DNA of 64,000 nt from Candidatus Latescibacterota bacterium (GCA_965248755.1 OZ252149.1:2176001-2240000); one strand, 5' to 3'. Positions 16,951 to 28,834 are shown, counted from the stretch's first letter. Notes: generated by a model from the sequence alone, not told the origin. Numbers and translations: made by a program.

Positions 16951-17280
16951 TTGAGAAGGGAGGTCAAGGTGTCGAGCCCCGAAGTGAAAGATGGTAAGCG
17001 CTGGACGGCGACCCGTAAGGGAGAGATTGTGTTGGCTCTTTTGAGAGGAGCAGATCTATCTGAGGTGTGTCGTAAGAATGGAATTAGCCAGTCGCAGGCG
17101 TATGCTTGGCGTGATAGTTTCTTAGAAGGGGGCCAGGAGAGTCTGAAGTCTCGGCGTGGTCGCAAGGATCCGAAGGAGCGAGAGGTTAGCCGGTTGGAGC
17201 GCAAGGTAGGGCAGTTGACGCTCCAGTTGGAGATACTCGAAGAGGTAGCCCGTCTAAAAAAAACGAAGCGGTTGCCTTGA
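16951..17280 (+). CDS. IS3 OrfA (HTH plus leucine zipper)
   Basis: RWTA.RK.EIVL, HTH, LERKVGQLT; A8 slippery run 17256-17263; GTG at 16969 may be the real start. Confidence 0.88.
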   Translation: MRREVKVSSPEVKDGKRWTATRKGEIVLALLRGADLSEVCRKNGISQSQAYAWRDSFLEGGQESLKSRRGRKDPKEREVSRLERKVGQLTLQLEILEEVARLKKTKRLP

Positions 17281-18140
17281 GTGGGCGGTTTTTGGGTCGA
17301 GGCTATTCCCGCAAGGTGGTAGCTTTGGCTTTGGGTTTGCATCGTTCGACTCTGTATAGGTTTAGGGATAGAGGTGTCAGTTCTTCTGTTAAAGAGCCTG
17401 TGATAGATGAGGAGCTTGCTTTTCGTATTCGAGGGATACTGGACCAAGAAGAGGCATTTGGTCACAGGCGGGTTTGGGCGCATCTTCGTTTCAAGGAAGG
17501 GGAATGTGTCAACGTTAAGAAGGTTCATAGGATAATGAAGCTTAAGGGGTGGCAGTGTAAGCTGTGGAATCGTCCCGGGAGAAAGGGGCCACAGGTTGCC
17601 CAGAAGCGTTCTGTGGTGGATAGTCCCGACAGTTTGTGGTCGAGTGACTTGACAAAGATTTACTGTGGAAAAGATGGTTGGTGTCCTCTTATTGCGGTGG
17701 TGGACAACGGAAGCCGGGAGGTTCCTGGGTATCGTTTTAGTCGAAAAGGGAGGGCACTGGAGGCCACAGATGCCCTGGATCGGGCCGTGATCTCTCGATA
17801 CACTTCCAAGGAGGCTGTCCCCCAGGGTCTCACTTTGCGCTCTGACAATGGTTCCATCTTTTTGGCTCGGGCCTATTTGGCCAGTACCGAATATTGGGGA
17901 ATTCGTCAGGAATACATACCAAGTGGTAAACCCGATTGGAACGGTGTTGTAGAGCGTTTTTTCAGGACCCTCAAGCAAGAGTGTGTTTGGCTTCACAAGT
18001 TTGAATCCTTTGAACAGGCTGAGAAGATCATATCTCAGTGGATCGATAATTACAACAAGAACAGGCTTCATTCATCCCTGGGATATAAGACCCCAAAAGA
18101 GTGGAGAAAACAATTTTATCTACTACCCCAGGTTGCTTAA
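17277..18140 (+). CDS. IS3 OrfB DDE transposase (in -1 frame to OrfA)
   Basis: WSSDLT, RSDNGS, NGVVERFFRTLKQE, YN..RLHSSLGY.TP. Confidence 0.93.
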   Translation: MSGRFLGRGYSRKVVALALGLHRSTLYRFRDRGVSSSVKEPVIDEELAFRIRGILDQEEAFGHRRVWAHLRFKEGECVNVKKVHRIMKLKGWQCKLWNRPGRKGPQVAQKRSVVDSPDSLWSSDLTKIYCGKDGWCPLIAVVDNGSREVPGYRFSRKGRALEATDALDRAVISRYTSKEAVPQGLTLRSDNGSIFLARAYLASTEYWGIRQEYIPSGKPDWNGVVERFFRTLKQECVWLHKFESFEQAEKIISQWIDNYNKNRLHSSLGYKTPKEWRKQFYLLPQVA

Positions 18141-18989: not shown

Positions 18990-19378
18990 ACTTATGATCG
19001 TGCAGGACATTTTAGACAAAAAGTTTGGCGATAGAAATGGAAGAGCGGGAATAAACCGAACCCGTTTTTCTGAGCACGAAATTGGACAAGTAAAGCAAGT
19101 TTTTCGCGTTGCTTGTACAGACTACCCGACTTGACAGTCTTACCTTTCTGTTATTGGGAATACGTATTCTACCAAATCGAGTGGTGCAAGATGACCTATT
19201 TCTAAATTACAGCTCTAAAGATACAAGGTTTATTTGACATAACAGCCCCCGTGGAGACTCATTTTGAGCTCTTGTCGACTTTAAGAAGTTGTTAAGCTAT
19301 GTGTCCAATTTGGATTTTCTGGGGTACACGTTACTGTTTTGGGAGAAGAGCCATCCGTTACGTGAAGGAGGATAAAAC

Positions 19379-19809
19379 ATGGCAACCGACTTCAAGATGC
19401 TGAACATGATAAGAAAGATCCCCATGTTTGGGGAACTTTCTGTGGATGAGGCAAAACTCGTGCTGAGCGCATGCCAGCAGAAGGACTATGAACCCAATGA
19501 GGTGATATTCAAATACGGGGGAGGCAGCAGTGAGATGTTGATCCTCATGTCGGGAAAACTGGACGTAAGGGGGCCTAGCGACGATCTTAACATAGCTGAA
19601 ATTAACCCTGGCAAATGGTAGGGGAAATGGACGTCCTCACGGGAAAGATCAGGTCAGCGACGGTAGTTTCTTCAGAAAAGTCAATAGCACTGAGCTTGAA
19701 CACCGCGGAGTTCGACAGACTGCTCAGAAAATACCACTATATAGGTCTCAAGATGTTAAGAAATGTTATAAACGATCTCTCTGTAAAGACCAGAATAAGC
19801 AATTCCTGA
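19379..19809 (+). pseudogene. Cyclic nucleotide-binding domain protein, frameshifted paralog of 21993-22631
   Basis: Near-identical N-terminus; 1-nt loss near 19611 (GGACAA to GGCAA); GEMG changed to GEMD; no C-terminal tail. Confidence 0.85.
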
Positions 19810-20558: not shown

Positions 20559-21557
20559 CTAATCGGCCATCAATTTTATGAGCTCACTGCATCTGTTGGC
20601 ATAGCCCCACTCATTGTCATACCATCCTATTACCTTAACCAGGTTGTCCTCTACAACACAGGTCGAAAGGGCATCAAAGATGCAGGAAGCTGGATCGCCT
20701 ATAATATCAGCTAAGACTATCGGCTCCTCGCTGTAAAAAAGATACCCCATCAGGCTGCCTGCTTGGGAGGCCGCCTTGAATGCCTCATTGACCTCATCTG
20801 TGGTGGCGTTCTTTTTCAACTCCGCTACAAGATCTGTCAGAGATCCGTTAGGAGTGGGGACCCTCACAGACATTCCGTTCAATTTTCCGTTCAGCTCGGG
20901 TATGACCTTACCGACAGCTACCGCGGCGCCTGTGGTAGTCGGGATCATCGAGACTGCGGATGCTCTGGCTCTCCTTAAATCCTTATGCGGTTGATCCACA
21001 ACTGCCTGATCGTTTGTGTAGGAATGAATCGTGGTCATCAATCCTTTCCGAACTCCGAAGTTATCGTTTAGGACCTTCACCATAGGAGCAAGGCAGTTGG
21101 TGGTGCAAGAGGCGTTGGATACTATCGTATATTCGGGTTTGAGCGCAGAGTCGTTCACACCCAGAACTATGGTAACGTCTTCACCCTTGGCCGGAGCCGA
21201 TATGAGGACTTTCTTTGCGCCTGCTTTCAGATGCCCTGATGTCTTTTCTCTTTCTGTGAAGAGGCCAGTGGATTCAAGGACTACATCCACGCCCAGATCT
21301 CCCCAGGGGAGGTTGGCCGGATCCCTTTCGGACAAGACCTTGATCTCAGCCCCATCCACGACGATAGCGCCGTCCTTGGGTTCGATCGAACCTGGGTATT
21401 TGCCGTGCACTGAATCGTATCTCAAAAGATGAGCCAAAGTATGGGCATCAGTTATATCGTTCACAGCAAGGACATCGCACCCTCCCTGTTCCATCGCTGC
21501 CCTGAAGACCAATCTTCCGATCCTTCCAAATCCGTTAATTCCCACCCTCACTGCCAT
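20559..21557 (-). CDS. gap: Glyceraldehyde-3-phosphate dehydrogenase, type I
   Basis: GINGFGRIGR, SNASCTTNCLAP, WYDNEWGY; start at MAVRVG. Confidence 0.98.
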   Translation of the reverse strand: MAVRVGINGFGRIGRLVFRAAMEQGGCDVLAVNDITDAHTLAHLLRYDSVHGKYPGSIEPKDGAIVVDGAEIKVLSERDPANLPWGDLGVDVVLESTGLFTEREKTSGHLKAGAKKVLISAPAKGEDVTIVLGVNDSALKPEYTIVSNASCTTNCLAPMVKVLNDNFGVRKGLMTTIHSYTNDQAVVDQPHKDLRRARASAVSMIPTTTGAAVAVGKVIPELNGKLNGMSVRVPTPNGSLTDLVAELKKNATTDEVNEAFKAASQAGSLMGYLFYSEEPIVLADIIGDPASCIFDALSTCVVEDNLVKVIGWYDNEWGYANRCSELIKLMAD

Positions 21558-21996
21558 TTTCATCCTCCTTCTGACTTTCATCCTCCTTCTCACTGAAGGA
21601 CCAATCTTCCACTTTAATGTCCTTAACCTGACTGAAGTTGCCGACCTTTTGTGTGACCAGAACAAAATCCATAGATAAGGCTATGCTGATCACCCTTAAA
21701 TCTCTCTCAGGCAGTGTTGCTCCCGCAAATTTTAAGGACGCCCATATCTTCCCGTACTGATCCGCTGCAGAAAGGTCAAAAGGCAAAACACCGACATCCT
21801 CCAAAAAGTTTTCTACCTGACTCAGACGCTGTTCTTTGTTGGTACTTGCAGCATTGGCAACAGACAAAAGCTCTGCCGCTGTTATTACCGACGTGGTGAT
21901 CCTATCGTCTTTTGCCAGGGCCTTAATCTTTGAGATAATGTCTTCGTTTTTCCTCAAAATCTCAACACATATGTCTGTATCCAGAAGATAGCTCAC
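21535..21996 (-). CDS. VapC-family PIN domain ribonuclease
   Basis: YLLDTD, SVITAAEL, LPFD..AA..YG, D..I...A, LVT; the fourth motif reads TQK; GTGA overlap with upstream gene. Confidence 0.88.
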   Translation of the reverse strand: MSYLLDTDICVEILRKNEDIISKIKALAKDDRITTSVITAAELLSVANAASTNKEQRLSQVENFLEDVGVLPFDLSAADQYGKIWASLKFAGATLPERDLRVISIALSMDFVLVTQKVGNFSQVKDIKVEDWSFSEKEDESQKEDENGSEGGN

Positions 21997-22631
21997 TCCT
22001 CGTGACTCCTCCTTTGGCTTCTCCTTGTAGTCTGGATATCTGCCTCAGCAGACTCCCCACATACTTCCTTCAAAACCGCATCCAGGTCCTGACTCTCCTC
22101 CCAGATGCCGGCGTGTTCCAACAAGAGAGCACTAGAGCACCCCATAGTGCTCGAGTCTACGATGTTGCTCAACTGCTCCATCTTTTTGGTGCTTCCCTCT
22201 AAATTGACATTGCCTGTCTTGATCTTGTCAGACAGATCGTCCACAATATTCTTGAATATCTTCAGACCTATCTTCTGAAATTTTCTAAGCAACCTGTCGA
22301 ACTCGGCGGTGTTCAAGCTCAGCGCCATCGACTTTCCTAAAGCAACTACGGTAGCTGACCTGATCTTTCCCGTGAGGACACCCATTTCCCCTACCAGTTG
22401 TCCAGGTTTGATCTGAGCTACGCTGACACCGCCGAGGGACCTTACGTCCAGTTCACCAGACATCAGAATCAACATCTCCCTGCTGCCTCCCCCGTACTTG
22501 AATATCACCTCATTGGGCTCATACTCCTTCTGCTGGCATGCGCTCAGCACCAGCTTTGCCTCATCCACTGAGAGTTCCCCGAACATGGGGATCTTCCTCA
22601 GTATGTTCAGCATCTTGAAGTCGGTTGCCAT
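21993..22631 (-). CDS. Cyclic nucleotide-binding domain protein with C-terminal antitoxin-like tail
   Basis: IPMF..L, VIF..G, GEMGVL...RSATVVA phosphate-binding cassette; tail LLLEHAGIWEESQDLDAVLKEV; no Crp HTH. Confidence 0.8.
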   Translation of the reverse strand: MATDFKMLNILRKIPMFGELSVDEAKLVLSACQQKEYEPNEVIFKYGGGSREMLILMSGELDVRSLGGVSVAQIKPGQLVGEMGVLTGKIRSATVVALGKSMALSLNTAEFDRLLRKFQKIGLKIFKNIVDDLSDKIKTGNVNLEGSTKKMEQLSNIVDSSTMGCSSALLLEHAGIWEESQDLDAVLKEVCGESAEADIQTTRRSQRRSHEE

Positions 22632-22644
22632 GTCTTATCCTCCT

Positions 22645-23529
22645 TCACGTAACGGATGGCTCTTTTGCTGAGACACCCAGGCCGAATATGGCAAAGTCGT
22701 ACTTTACAGGATCGTCTTTATCGAACTTCCTCAGGCTATCTGTGATGTCCTCGGCGGTTTTCCAGTCGTTTGATTTGCGCTCAGTCAATTTGAACTTCCT
22801 GGAGAGCCTGGACACATGCACGTCCAGCGGGATGACCAGCATCCTTGTCGGAACTTCTCTCCATAAGCCGATATCAACAGAGTCCGATCTGACCATCCAC
22901 CTCAGATACATATTCAGCCTTTTACATGCGCTGCCCCCGCCCGGAGAAGGGATCAGTGCTTTGACCCTTTGGGGAATCTCATCCGTCTCTGGGAGTGGAT
23001 CCAGATTATAGATGTTCTGGACGAATCTCGTTAAAGCCGGCCTGATCGTCCCATCTGAGAGATCGAGCCCTCTGAGAAAGAGTTCTTTTATGGACCCGTA
23101 TTTTTCTATGACCTGTTTCAAAAGATATATCACACACGCCACGTCGTCGCCCAATATCATTCGATACGCAAAATGAGAAAAGCCTTTAAAACGCTCGAGA
23201 TCTCTTTTTGGATCAAAATTGGCTACGAACTTGTAAGGTCTATCTTCCATTTGTCTGAATATCTTCTCCAAGCTTGAAAGTATGTTAGTCCTCCTGCCCT
23301 GAGCCATAATAGAGGCAATCATCCCGGCGACTTCACGATCTCTATCGTCTGAGTATCTGTGCACGAATTTGACCGGATCGTTCGGTATGAAATCCGGCGT
23401 GTTGTACTTTTCAAAGAGCAAGTCCAAGGACTTCTTCAGTTCTATGTCGGAGTCCGAAAGGTCAAACGTAGACTCCGTTACGGTTTTTCTATCTGCATTT
23501 TCAAATAGATCTATCTCATCAAAGGTCAT
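22645..23529 (-). CDS. TIGR02757 family protein (HhH-GPD-like)
   Basis: DPV.FVHRY, SACKRLNMYLRWMVR, D.G.W, IPLDVH, DPVKYDFA.FG. Confidence 0.92.
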   Translation of the reverse strand: MTFDEIDLFENADRKTVTESTFDLSDSDIELKKSLDLLFEKYNTPDFIPNDPVKFVHRYSDDRDREVAGMIASIMAQGRRTNILSSLEKIFRQMEDRPYKFVANFDPKRDLERFKGFSHFAYRMILGDDVACVIYLLKQVIEKYGSIKELFLRGLDLSDGTIRPALTRFVQNIYNLDPLPETDEIPQRVKALIPSPGGGSACKRLNMYLRWMVRSDSVDIGLWREVPTRMLVIPLDVHVSRLSRKFKLTERKSNDWKTAEDITDSLRKFDKDDPVKYDFAIFGLGVSAKEPSVT

Positions 23530-23547: not shown

Positions 23548-24087
23548 TCAATTCATCAGGCTCTTAACCCTTAGTATAGCCCATTTAGCTTCAGGGTAGT
23601 CATAATTTGCAGTTAGAGCTTCCTCGTAAGCTTTCTTGTACTCCTCAATGGCCTCAAGCCAGGCTCCCTGAAGTTCCAGAATCCTTGCCAAATTGAAGTG
23701 AGGATAGTGATAGCACTCGTATCTTCTGGCTACCATGGCTTTCTTGAGGTAGGGTACAGCTTCATCGAACCTTCCCAACTCGATCAGATAAGCTCCTATA
23801 TCGTTGTAGGGATTACCAAAGTCGGGATCGACTTCTATTGCCTTTTTACACTCCCCTATCGCTTCGTGTAGACTTCCCATAAAACTGTAATTCCACCCCA
23901 GGAACGTATGCGCCTCTCCGGTGGGATAAAAGTCTATGGATTGCTCGTAGTACTTGATCGCTTCCTCAAAATAAATAAGCGCCTCCTCCTCCCTGCCCTC
24001 ACTCTGAGCCTGATGAGCCTGCATCTGAATCTGGTATGCCTTCCTCCAACAATCCTCAGCTTCCTTTTGGACGTCGCTTTTATCCAT
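23548..24087 (-). CDS. Tetratricopeptide repeat protein
   Basis: PT.EAHTFLGW.YS, AI.ECKKAIEVDPDFGNPYNDIGAYL TPR pattern. Confidence 0.88.
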   Translation of the reverse strand: MDKSDVQKEAEDCWRKAYQIQMQAHQAQSEGREEEALIYFEEAIKYYEQSIDFYPTGEAHTFLGWNYSFMGSLHEAIGECKKAIEVDPDFGNPYNDIGAYLIELGRFDEAVPYLKKAMVARRYECYHYPHFNLARILELQGAWLEAIEEYKKAYEEALTANYDYPEAKWAILRVKSLMN

Positions 24088-24269
24088 ATACAGTCGGCAC
24101 CTCCTACACCTGCTTTTTTAAGATACTCAGCGGATTTAGGGAGCTCTATTTCAGGATCGCCCAAGATACGACGTTCCATAGCCATATACTTACCGTAACC
24201 TGTCAAGCTCACATCAACAAAGCCGATTGTAACTCAAATATAAAAATACTGCATTGCGATGTCAACTAT

Positions 24270-24780: not shown

Positions 24781-25260
24781 TTATGAAACTTGAATCTCTC
24801 CGTTCTCCCTTACTTCTTCCGTCCTTACTGTCCCGAACTTGGACGTGAGCACAGCTCCGAACCCAAGAGCAAGAGCTGCCGATAAGGTAAACCAGCCGAA
24901 ATACGGTATCTGGTGTACGAGGGTCAGGATTATGAGTCCGATCACAAGCTCCAGTATGGGGGACTTCTCTTTTATTTTAAGAGGTATCTCTTTGCCGATT
25001 ACGAGTGTGACAGCTATATATCCGAGGAACATCGCGACAGAAGCTGCAAGTCCGATAAGCGGTAAAAGGGGTATTCCGATTATGGTTATGCCTATGAGCA
25101 CCATAAGAGGACCTATGCAAATCATCCCGCACAGACCTATAAGTACAGACTGCCATAAACTGTTTCGTAAGGTGTAGGATACGTTCTCGACATGTCGTGG
25201 AAGGAAGGTTATAAAGATCGCTCCCAGGGCTATGAGATCCAGGAAAAGTATGAAGTCCAT
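24781..25260 (-). CDS. Multi-pass membrane protein, duplicate of the C-terminal domain of 25329-26315
   Basis: High protein and DNA identity to the neighbour; own AGGAGG RBS. Confidence 0.8.
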   Translation of the reverse strand: MDFILFLDLIALGAIFITFLPRHVENVSYTLRNSLWQSVLIGLCGMICIGPLMVLIGITIIGIPLLPLIGLAASVAMFLGYIAVTLVIGKEIPLKIKEKSPILELVIGLIILTLVHQIPYFGWFTLSAALALGFGAVLTSKFGTVRTEEVRENGEIQVS

Positions 25261-25328
25261 TTTCTCCTCCTTTGTGCAGTAGTTATTTCTAAAAGGCTAA
25301 TGGGTGTTGTGGATTTTGAAAAACGAGT

Positions 25329-26315
25329 CTATGAAGCCTGGGCCTCTCCGTTCTCCCTTACTTTCTCTGTCCTTACTGTCCCGAATTTGGATGTAAGAAC
25401 AGCTCCGAATCCAAGGGCAATAGTCGCTGAGAGGGTGAGCCAACCGAGATACGGTATCTGGTTCACAAGCGCCAGGATTATGGCTCCAATTGCAAGCTCC
25501 AGTATGGGGGACTTCTCTTTTATTTTAAGAGGTATCCCCTTGCCGATTACGAGTGTGACAGCTATGTATCCGAGGAACATAGCGACAAAGGCGGCAAGTC
25601 CGATAAGCGGCACAAGGGGTATTCCGATTATGGTTATGCCTATGAGCACCATAAGAGGACCTACGCATATCAATCCGAACAGACCAATAAGTACAGACTG
25701 CCATATACTGTTTCTTGCGGTATGGGATATGCTCTCGATATGCATGGGAAAGAAGATCATAAGGAGTGCACCCAGGGCTATGACAACCAGGGCGACCGCG
25801 ATCTTGTAAATGATTTTGGCGAAGAAAAGGAAGCCGGAAATCTTATCCCTGACTTCAGGCGTAAATGCGCGCCGTGCTATAGGGGGGAGTATTGCATTTA
25901 AGCCTTGAATGTCCCCCACTTCCATCACGTCTCCACTTATTATTGCCGTGCTGTCAGCTACTATTTGTCCTCCTATTGAGAGTACGTCTTTGACCTCGGC
26001 TCCCGCTTCTAAATAGACATTTCCTCCTATAGCTGCTACATCTTTGGTCTTTCCTGAGACTGTCGCGCTCCCTACGATGGCCACGGCGTTTCTGGTCTGG
26101 CCCTTGACATCAATACTTCCTCCGATAGCCACAGCGTCTTTGGCACTTCCTTTCACTGTTACGGAGCCGCCTATAGCGACTACGTTTTTTACTGTTTCAC
26201 CTTCTTCAACTACTATATTCTGGCCCGATCTTACAATATCCTTGGCGGCGAAGGCCTGAGATGCCATAAGGAATAGAGCTATGGCTAACGTTGTGACGAT
26301 GAAGATCCTTTTCAT
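25329..26315 (-). CDS. Secreted beta-helix (bactofilin-like AIGG repeats) plus multi-TM membrane protein
   Basis: Signal peptide, V.AIGG.V.V.G repeats, hydrophobic C-terminal domain. Confidence 0.8.
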   Translation of the reverse strand: MKRIFIVTTLAIALFLMASQAFAAKDIVRSGQNIVVEEGETVKNVVAIGGSVTVKGSAKDAVAIGGSIDVKGQTRNAVAIVGSATVSGKTKDVAAIGGNVYLEAGAEVKDVLSIGGQIVADSTAIISGDVMEVGDIQGLNAILPPIARRAFTPEVRDKISGFLFFAKIIYKIAVALVVIALGALLMIFFPMHIESISHTARNSIWQSVLIGLFGLICVGPLMVLIGITIIGIPLVPLIGLAAFVAMFLGYIAVTLVIGKGIPLKIKEKSPILELAIGAIILALVNQIPYLGWLTLSATIALGFGAVLTSKFGTVRTEKVRENGEAQAS

Positions 26316-27658: not shown

Positions 27659-28609
27659 CTAATAGAGAGTTTCATGTGATATTTCTCTAACGGAGACACC
27701 TTTCTTTGCAAGAATAAGAACGAAATCAACGCGCTTCGCTATCATCTTGTTTGCATAGACAGTAATGGAAAGATCAAGGCGTCTCTTATAGTTTTTGCCC
27801 CTTTTCATTTTCACTTGAATATTTCCCAATGATAGATTCAGACCACGGTGTATGACTTCCTTGATAGTGTATATGTATATCTTTTGACCTGGATTCACGT
27901 TTGAGGCATCTCTGAACTGCACAGATGGCATAATCAGCTCACAGTCTGTTGGATTCTCGACGACTAGGTTAACCTTAACGTGTTCCGCAATTGCACTTGA
28001 TCTATTCTCCACTAAAAGTGGGATTAGGAACACCAGATCTTCCTCAATCTTGACCTGCTCACAACTGAACGCGGGATGTAGATCGGGACTATCCGTTGCT
28101 GCGAATAGTCTCTTTATCATCTCATAAGGTGCTTTTACAAATTCGTCTTCTGCTCGAAAGTACAACACGTTTTCTTCATTCTACATCACTGGATCGCCTA
28201 ATCTTTTTGGTATATGAATAACAACAATCCCTCTAGTGTCGGTTTTCTTTTGCCTTAGTATCTTGGTTTGAGCAGTGAGTATTGGAGGTGTCGCAACAGT
28301 CGGTATAGCTCGGCGAATCTGCTGTTCAAAGGGTCCAATATTGCCGATAGGTTCAAGTTGTGTTAGAACATCCAACCCTGTGGGGGCTTGTTTCGTCGTG
28401 CTGATGCCATAAATTATTAGTCCGCCTTGTGTATTGCAAAAACCAGATACCGCCTGTCCTAACTGACGCTTTATATCTTTCGTAGTGCGAGATCCCCCTG
28501 CAGTTTTACACTCGAGGTAAAGCCCCTCACTTTCCCTGTCTTCAATTAGCTGTTCTAATCGTTTGTATGAAGACAAGTCCTTGTAAACTTCGTTGGACGC
28601 GTCAGCCAC
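27659..28609 (-). pseudogene. Schlafen/AlbA_2 domain protein interrupted by one in-frame TAG at 28181-28183
   Basis: ES..LECK, AVSGFCNTQGG.IIYGI, then GDPVM*NEENVLYFRAED..V continuing in the same frame. Confidence 0.75.
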
Positions 28610-28834
28610 GGCACCCCTCCTAAGGCAACATAATTTATCCACTGAAATGGTAATGATAACTCAAAAGGATCCCAAGATTACAAACTTTCACCTTCCAAGT
28701 CAAGTGCTTTTCATCCCCTTTTCAAAGCCATCACTCCTCAACCGTCATCTTTCTTCTCTTTCAAACTGGATACATCCATCCACAAGATCAGATTTTTCCC
28801 CAAACTATAGGTTTTTGGCCCATAGAAGATCATA

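Follow-up and report, generated by a model that had tools for sequence, protein, structure and literature searches.

VapBC toxin-antitoxin modules usually pair a VapC toxin of the PIN fold with an antitoxin that is encoded directly upstream by a translationally coupled gene, carries a DNA-binding head for autoregulation and a VapC-neutralizing C-terminal tail, and is normally removed by proteolysis. The closest described systems to the pair reported here are the VapBC modules of the PIN.COG1487 clade, which include R. felis VapBC2 (3zvk), H. influenzae VapBC1 (6nkl) and VapBC of Shigella and Salmonella, with an active site composed of the core acids D6, E42 and D99 with T7 and T115 and a fourth position that is D or N at 117, accompanied by E120 when 117 is N. 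In RfVapBC2, Trp46 of the antitoxin is reported to fill a toxin pocket comprised of L25, E26, I34, F64, R67 and L68, and Arg66, 20 residues after Trp46, to contact E43 and D99 (PMC3326315). The work on VapC1 of nontypeable H. influenzae (NTHi) reports that N117I inactivates the toxin, that E120G strongly reduces toxicity unless residue 117 becomes D, that A103V and A103T are selected loss-of-function alleles, and that binding and neutralization by VapB1 persist in the mutants (PMC4229260). Sensors of cyclic nucleotides with the PF00027 domain, a beta-barrel with a G-E...R phosphate-binding cassette and a C-helix, include the Crp/Fnr regulators, which end in a winged HTH, and the cNMP-TIR or cNMP-TM effectors of Pycsar, which are encoded beside a PycC cyclase. 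Crp dimerizes through its C-helix. A cNMP-domain antitoxin or a cNMP-VapC pair was not described in the portions of the full-text literature searched, although the supplements of large toxin-antitoxin catalogues could list one; passages of PMC5499597 mention neither 'cNMP' nor 'cyclic', and those of PMC2701414 (AF2212 family) do not mention 'cAMP'.

The window, which is the whole 64,000-nucleotide stretch of Candidatus Latescibacterota DNA analysed (genome G000), contains on its minus strand the gene order TPR-DUF2400-fusion-PIN-gap-secG. The genes encode a 179-aa TPR protein (23548..24087), a DUF2400/TIGR02757 protein (22645..23529), a cNMP-binding/VapB-tail fusion protein of 212 aa (21993..22631), a VapC-family PIN protein of 153 aa (21535..21996) and GAPDH (gap, 20559..21557). 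A candidate sigma70-type promoter upstream of the TPR gene, TTGACA-17-TATATT (24237..24265, minus strand), matches the consensus at 11 of 12 positions with both hexamers kept in the sister species G001 and, judged from its sequence, likely drives TPR-DUF2400-fusion-PIN-gap. The GTG start of the PIN gene (21996-21994) overlaps the TGA stop of the fusion gene (21995-21993) as GTGA, and a strong RBS precedes the PIN start within the last codons of the fusion tail; thus, the fusion gene occupies the position of a translationally coupled antitoxin gene directly upstream of the toxin. These coordinates agree with the overlap reported in a preliminary description of the locus, as does the absence of a separate small antitoxin gene, since inspection of the locus revealed no small ORF between the fusion and PIN genes and the in-frame starts near the tail pair poorly with the Shine-Dalgarno sequence (M151, -6.3 kcal/mol at 13 nt spacing; M163, -2.2 kcal/mol; M1 of the fusion, -11.9 kcal/mol). 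The PIN frame overlaps the start of gap by 23 nt, and the ribosome-binding region of gap is an 18-nt tandem duplication (window 21555-21595) translated as the C-terminal extension of PIN. The pgk gene lies approximately 1 Mb from gap and secG. A GC3 of 0.49 for PIN against 0.53-0.56 for the neighbouring genes does not single it out as a recent acquisition. An RNA run (X13) yielded a 224-nt contig in gap with fusion and PIN uncovered, a result from contigs that cannot show absence of expression. Elsewhere in the phylum, 16 DUF2400 loci of 15 genomes showed no cNMP, PIN, TPR or gap gene within approximately 1.5 kb, so that synteny does not fix the ancestral gene order. A Cys-rich C-terminal tail, which many DUF2400 proteins of the phylum have, is missing from the one in the window.

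Pfam analysis of the 212-aa protein returned PF00027 alone (residues 35-117, 22281..22529, minus strand; E 1.3e-15, over the cut-off) with no Crp HTH. The cassette GEMGVLTGKIRSATV is intact with G81, E82 and R91 all retained, residues that are invariant across 45 aligned cNMP proteins, and the beta-barrel, cassette and C-helix characteristic of PF00027 are all present. The AlphaFold2 model showed a confident cNMP domain followed by a single continuous C-helix or coiled coil over residues 119-164 (22140..22277, minus strand), a low-confidence linker over residues 165-181 between the C-helix and the tail motif, and a tail, also of low confidence, in which residues 170-173 and 181-190 form short helices. 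Tail-less relatives within this cNMP subfamily likewise extend the coiled coil past N141. The model thus comprises a cNMP domain, a helix and a disordered tail, with neither the DNA-binding head that serves VapBC autoregulation nor the C-terminal winged HTH of Crp/Fnr proteins, and identity as a Crp/Fnr regulator was rejected on the latter ground. An origin of the long frame by a stop codon lost through sequencing or assembly error was also rejected, the 212-aa frame being found in three genomes and a read-derived contig covering 21100-22437 without gaps.

The acidic C-terminal tail (residues 167-212, 21996..22133, minus strand) had been likened in the preliminary description to the C-termini of PIN-associated antitoxins, a likeness that the analysis supports. 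An ORF lay adjacent and upstream at 177 of the 183 vapC loci examined. Filtering for a GxWx[DEG]-type motif retained 43 ORFs which, after removal by eye of six off-motif loci and collapse of duplicates, gave 31 tails with the consensus hydrophobic-xxx-G-x-W-x-D-x-R-xx-EEII-x-EIY-x-x-R. A profile built from these tails with the query excluded scored 10.4 bits over fusion residues 170-189 (E 2e-5 when taken as one test) and matched residues 198-211 weakly, the real tail being equalled by none of 5000 tail shuffles and the test to be read as partly circular, the seeding filter favouring the G and W that the query also has. When all 56,264 six-frame ORFs of G000 were compared, 10.4 bits was the top single-domain score, although at this scale the match is not significant (E approximately 1) and ranks third by whole-sequence score; 150 cNMP representatives scored no more than 4.7 bits. 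The tail reads LLLEHAG(175)IW(177)EESQDLDAVLKE, followed by a 9-residue insert and then R203, and its G, W and R fall in conserved columns, that of R203 being Arg in 26 of 28 aligned antitoxins. The insert is missing from all 28, in which the spacing from W to R is 16-18 residues compared with 26 in the fusion. Searches for direct homologs of the tail were negative: no candidate emerged when shorter proteins were searched by words from residues 125-212, the tail alignment gave a single chance match against PDB (E 0.5), no Pfam family was matched by more than one of 30 members of that alignment, and the ESM Atlas gave no usable match to the tail. Taken together, the profile and alignment indicate that the tail very likely derives from the C-terminus of a VapB-type antitoxin, and in our judgement it probably still binds the PIN protein.

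The 31 antitoxins used for comparison, known here from their sequences and gene positions, share with the fusion the C-terminal GxWxD...R motif and a location immediately in front of vapC, which many of them overlap by 4 nt. The fusion differs in the 9-residue insert and in the cNMP domain, which was found at none of the 183 vapC loci. An out-of-sample search of 168 genomes of the phylum with the profile gave 23 matches, and of 20 loci fetched 16 were new; PIN was directly downstream in 9 of these 16 (9 of 12 at E<=0.005) and a cNMP domain in none. The motif belongs to a portable C-terminal module of approximately 35 aa (GxWxD...EEII.EIY..R) located at the 31 loci behind varied heads (Phd, RHH, FitA-like, DUF2281, HTH_17, MazE-like and unclassified), for which these searches identified no Pfam or PDB model. 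Antitoxin or DNA-binding heads were recognized by Pfam (E<=0.01) in 11 of the 31 genes, six of them over the cut-off (Phd, RHH_1, DUF2281 twice, FitA-like RHH and HTH_17). The antitoxins with this module mostly precede vapC genes with D8 and H120. Four orphan antitoxin-like ORFs with a GxW tail were found in other genomes of the phylum, with no PIN found downstream.

The 153-aa ORF is a PIN domain (PF01850, E 2.8e-13, over the cut-off), the only PF01850 match in G000 and likewise in G001, and the closest NCBIfam models are VapC, with scores below their cut-offs (97 versus 140 and 55 versus 143 bits). The VapC-type fold is intact, with a pLDDT of 95 and Foldseek TM scores of 0.92 to RfVapC2 (3zvk) and 0.89 to NTHi VapC1 (6nkl). 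The protein is 26-35% identical to members of the VapBC clade described above and at most approximately 40% identical to any other VapC found. In common with that clade, the gene order is antitoxin first with overlap and the core acids D6, E42 and D99 are kept with T7 and T115, as are D8, S36 and F121. The pocket that accommodates Trp46 of RfVapB2 corresponds by alignment to I24, K25, I33, F64, D67 and V68, and the Trp and downstream Arg of the fusion tail parallel Trp46 and Arg66 of RfVapB2.

Other positions are atypical (V46, W85, I103, Q116, K117, N120 and Q123), and the fourth active-site position of the clade is not conserved, N117 and E120 being replaced by K and by N in G000 or S in G001. 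In a sample of 112 non-redundant VapC relatives, biased toward the sequence patterns used in collecting them, 105 have N at position 117 and none has K, 109 have E, H or D at position 120 and none has N, and the conserved residues G46 (107), A or G103 (110) and R or K85 (100) are replaced in the PIN protein by V, I and W; each of K117, N120, V46, I103 and W85 occurs in 0/112. The Tyr46-Arg85 dimer stack of RfVapC2 is also replaced (S45/V46, W85). Overall, seven of 28 conserved columns are missed, a number equalled or exceeded by 11 of the 112 relatives, some of which are truncated, and the terminal branch is 1.29 compared with a median of 0.43. Residues 134-153 form a 20-aa extension past the usual DW end that reads through the RBS of gap; the extension and the degenerate active site are additions to the preliminary description. 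The substitutions and the long terminal branch render RNase activity doubtful, and the active site appears blunted. We infer inactivity rather than reading it from the NTHi VapC1 mutants, because Lys at 117 was not among the changes included in that work (PMC4229260). The pair is therefore VapBC-like in gene order and tail and departs from VapBC in the DNA-binding head and the fourth active-site position.

The fusion was found in three genomes of one genus only. In a search of 41 genomes it was present in G000 and G001, with 97% identity between these members of the same genus, and the other 39 matched the cNMP part only or nothing; the 90% cluster of the fusion has three members, the third on a 407-kb contig. 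A phmmer search against 1.84 billion representatives gave, among the best 150 matches, no best stretch extending past residue 185 and no GxW tail in matches of 140-340 aa, and a metagenome scan with the fusion confirmed 0 of 365 pattern matches. The PIN protein has three close homologues. In the third genome the fusion is intact and PIN ends at residue 100, with 11 of 100 PIN positions changed relative to G001, whereas the fusion is changed at 4 of 212 (Fisher P 0.001). The truncated protein closes with 12 foreign residues, for which G000 gave no convincing source match. Two PIN contigs were present in sequencing run X3, which may be the source of the third-genome assembly; one is intact, and the other is more diverged and fits only to 21698 (codon 100). 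Run X8 gave short unlike pieces only, and runs with small word shares were set aside as evidence of habitat. The same 212-aa frame in three genomes indicates that the pair is not a chance fusion of one genome; the architecture is real, lineage-restricted and apparently undescribed.

Selection was evaluated between G000 and G001 against 31 neighbouring ORFs (pooled pS 0.067, median pN/pS 0.24). Residues 142-212 of the fusion showed two non-synonymous changes, both in the insert, where 11.5 were expected if neutral (P 8e-4), and residues 167-212 alone gave P 0.02-0.05. Residues 1-133 of PIN showed nine non-synonymous changes where 20.8 were expected (P 0.003), and the pN/pS of 0.38 is within the local range of 0.09-0.77, which indicates that PIN is not decaying in these two genomes. 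Tail and PIN are both maintained under purifying selection between the two species, as judged from counts of few substitutions in a close pair and with a tail whose last codons double as the PIN RBS.

The reading that we favour, with a probability of about 0.5, is that the pair is what remains of a VapBC module after domestication, a PIN protein with little or no activity being tethered to a cNMP sensor within a housekeeping operon. In the ancestor of the genus, a vapBC operon would have become inserted downstream of a cNMP-binding gene and ahead of gap, the antitoxin would have shed its DNA-binding head and its neutralizing C-terminus would have been joined in frame to the cNMP protein after the coiled coil; the present overlap of vapC with gap would reflect the loss of the original vapC stop. 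The fusion is predicted to dimerize via the long C-helix in a Crp-like manner, with the tail binding the PIN dimer such that W177 would occupy a hydrophobic pocket of I24, I33, F64 and V68, and R203 or a later Arg would lie over E42 and D99. Catalysis and RNA binding by the PIN protein are expected to be blunted by K117 and by the absence of E/H/D120, R85, R119 and R123, which would leave a nuclease that is weak or dead. The pair would then be a constitutively co-translated complex responsive to cAMP or cGMP that tunes at most the RNA-binding or low-level RNase activity of PIN and is not a growth-arrest switch. Several points argue against a domesticated remnant, among them the modest and partly circular tail match, the small substitution counts and a PIN pN/pS within the local range. 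The retention of the core acids with D8, T7, S36, T115 and F121 is expected if some catalysis is still selected, and a tail serving only to hold PIN need not persist where PIN is truncated, although that loss may be recent.

Another possibility is that the arrangement is a vestige, the tail having been fixed when it neutralized an active VapC that later drifted to harmlessness, with the frames persisting as carriers of ribosomes to gap and cyclic nucleotides having no effect on PIN. The overlap of PIN with the start and RBS of gap and the truncation of PIN in one of three genomes would follow from such a history, and the tail insert unmatched in the 28 antitoxins, the low-confidence linker separating sensor and motif, and an IS-rich genome (69 and 47 near-identical copies) with several decaying cNMP paralogs are consistent with it. 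However, ribosome delivery alone does not predict purifying selection at the amino-acid level on both tail and PIN, and the low identity of PIN to other VapCs argues that it has been kept for long, with its fold intact.

Unlikely in our estimation is the mechanism offered in the preliminary description, in which an active RNase is released for growth arrest. In such a working cNMP-gated type II module, binding of cAMP, cGMP or a pyrimidine cNMP would shift the C-helix dimer, expose or release the tail, either directly or by way of proteolysis, and free an altered-site RNase (D6/D8/E42/D99/K117). The canonical gene order with the GTGA overlap, the strong RBS of PIN, the antitoxin homology of the tail, the four acids including D8, the intact cassette and the purifying selection on both partners are in agreement with gating, as are the four class III cyclase (PF00211) matches of G000, which also has 16 cNMP-domain matches. 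The claim of an active, releasable toxin is nonetheless poorly supported by a PIN protein that has K117 and N or S120, found in none of the 112 relatives, at positions needed by NTHi VapC1, the closest tested VapC, that has lost conserved basic and other near-invariant residues and that is broken in one of three genomes. The absence of an autoregulatory DNA-binding head, the housekeeping-type promoter and location upstream of gap, the confinement to one genus and the lack of defence context also weigh against it. The placement inside a housekeeping operon and the lack of spread between lineages set the pair apart from the VapBC modules of the clade above. The proposed link to phage signalling found no support. 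The cyclase matches are at 0.29, 0.59, 2.50 and 3.08 Mb, none near the fusion locus at 2.198 Mb, and PADLOC matches at the locus were to the generic cNMP domain only, that to PycTIR covering residues 25-139. A Pycsar system or defence island was accordingly rejected. The fusion shares with Crp/Fnr sensors and Pycsar effectors such as PycTIR an intact cassette and a long C-helix, but it has no HTH, TIR or TM effector and its operon no cyclase gene; it is partnered with PIN as a distinct protein, which would be controlled by relief of inhibition rather than by direct activation as in Pycsar.

That the tail is a chance look-alike, an acidic disordered extension beside an unrelated orphan PIN, or that translation from an internal start yields a short antitoxin, is highly improbable: the marginal genome-wide score, the lack of a direct tail homolog by word search, Pfam, PDB or Atlas and the acidic C-terminal extensions of many relatives would allow a chance likeness, but the top single-domain match of the genome sits exactly at the antitoxin position and ends on the PIN start with G, W and R in conserved columns, and the internal starts have no good RBS.

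If PIN is active and gated, the pair would connect cyclic-nucleotide signalling directly with a VapBC toxin and could serve as a template for an RNase switched by a ligand, with allosteric small-molecule control replacing control of VapBC by transcription and proteolysis. If PIN is blunted, which is more likely, the pair would be a natural case of toxin-antitoxin domestication in which the neutralizing tail serves as a portable tag tethering a pseudo-nuclease to a sensor. Either reading exposes the portable GxWxD...R tail, which occurs with five or more kinds of head. The weight of the fusion itself is that of three genomes from one uncultured genus.

The preliminary description had contrasted the fusion with a nearby tail-less paralog. 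The tail is indeed absent from this copy (19346..19809, plus strand; paralog proper 19379-19809), but the contrast is weak, since the copy duplicates only part of the cNMP gene, in inverted orientation, and is dead in both species, frameshifted in G000 and with a nonsense codon at 19 in G001; it therefore says little on the tail. The duplicate is 84% identical over 459 nt and extends from 33 nt ahead of the start codon to codon 141. The cNMP copies of the genus form one clade (support 100/99), and the last six codons of the DUF2400 gene with the following RBS are common to the 5' leaders of the solo paralogs. The solo copies may be shortened derivatives, because relatives elsewhere carry the C-helix past N141 as does the fusion. 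One solo copy is intact in G000 and two in G001, the others being split by IS or frameshifted.

One solo paralog (G000:C1:1315712-1317765) is split by a 1.63-kb IS with 47 near-identical copies and a 465-aa transposase, and its 5' part, with upstream DNA and IS, is copied to 1792736-1792900 and 3748615-3748779. A two-ORF IS at window 16951-18140, which we take to be IS3-like, is present genome-wide in 69 near-identical copies, and the genome is undergoing an IS expansion. Downstream of an ECF sigma/anti-sigma-like pair, at window 24781-26315, part of a membrane-protein gene is duplicated in tandem (85% nt). Two ORFs of 153 and 169 aa at window 27659-28642, with no match in the stretch of G001 compared, are possibly a split or recently acquired gene, the first presumably resembling a Schlafen/AlbA_2 domain.
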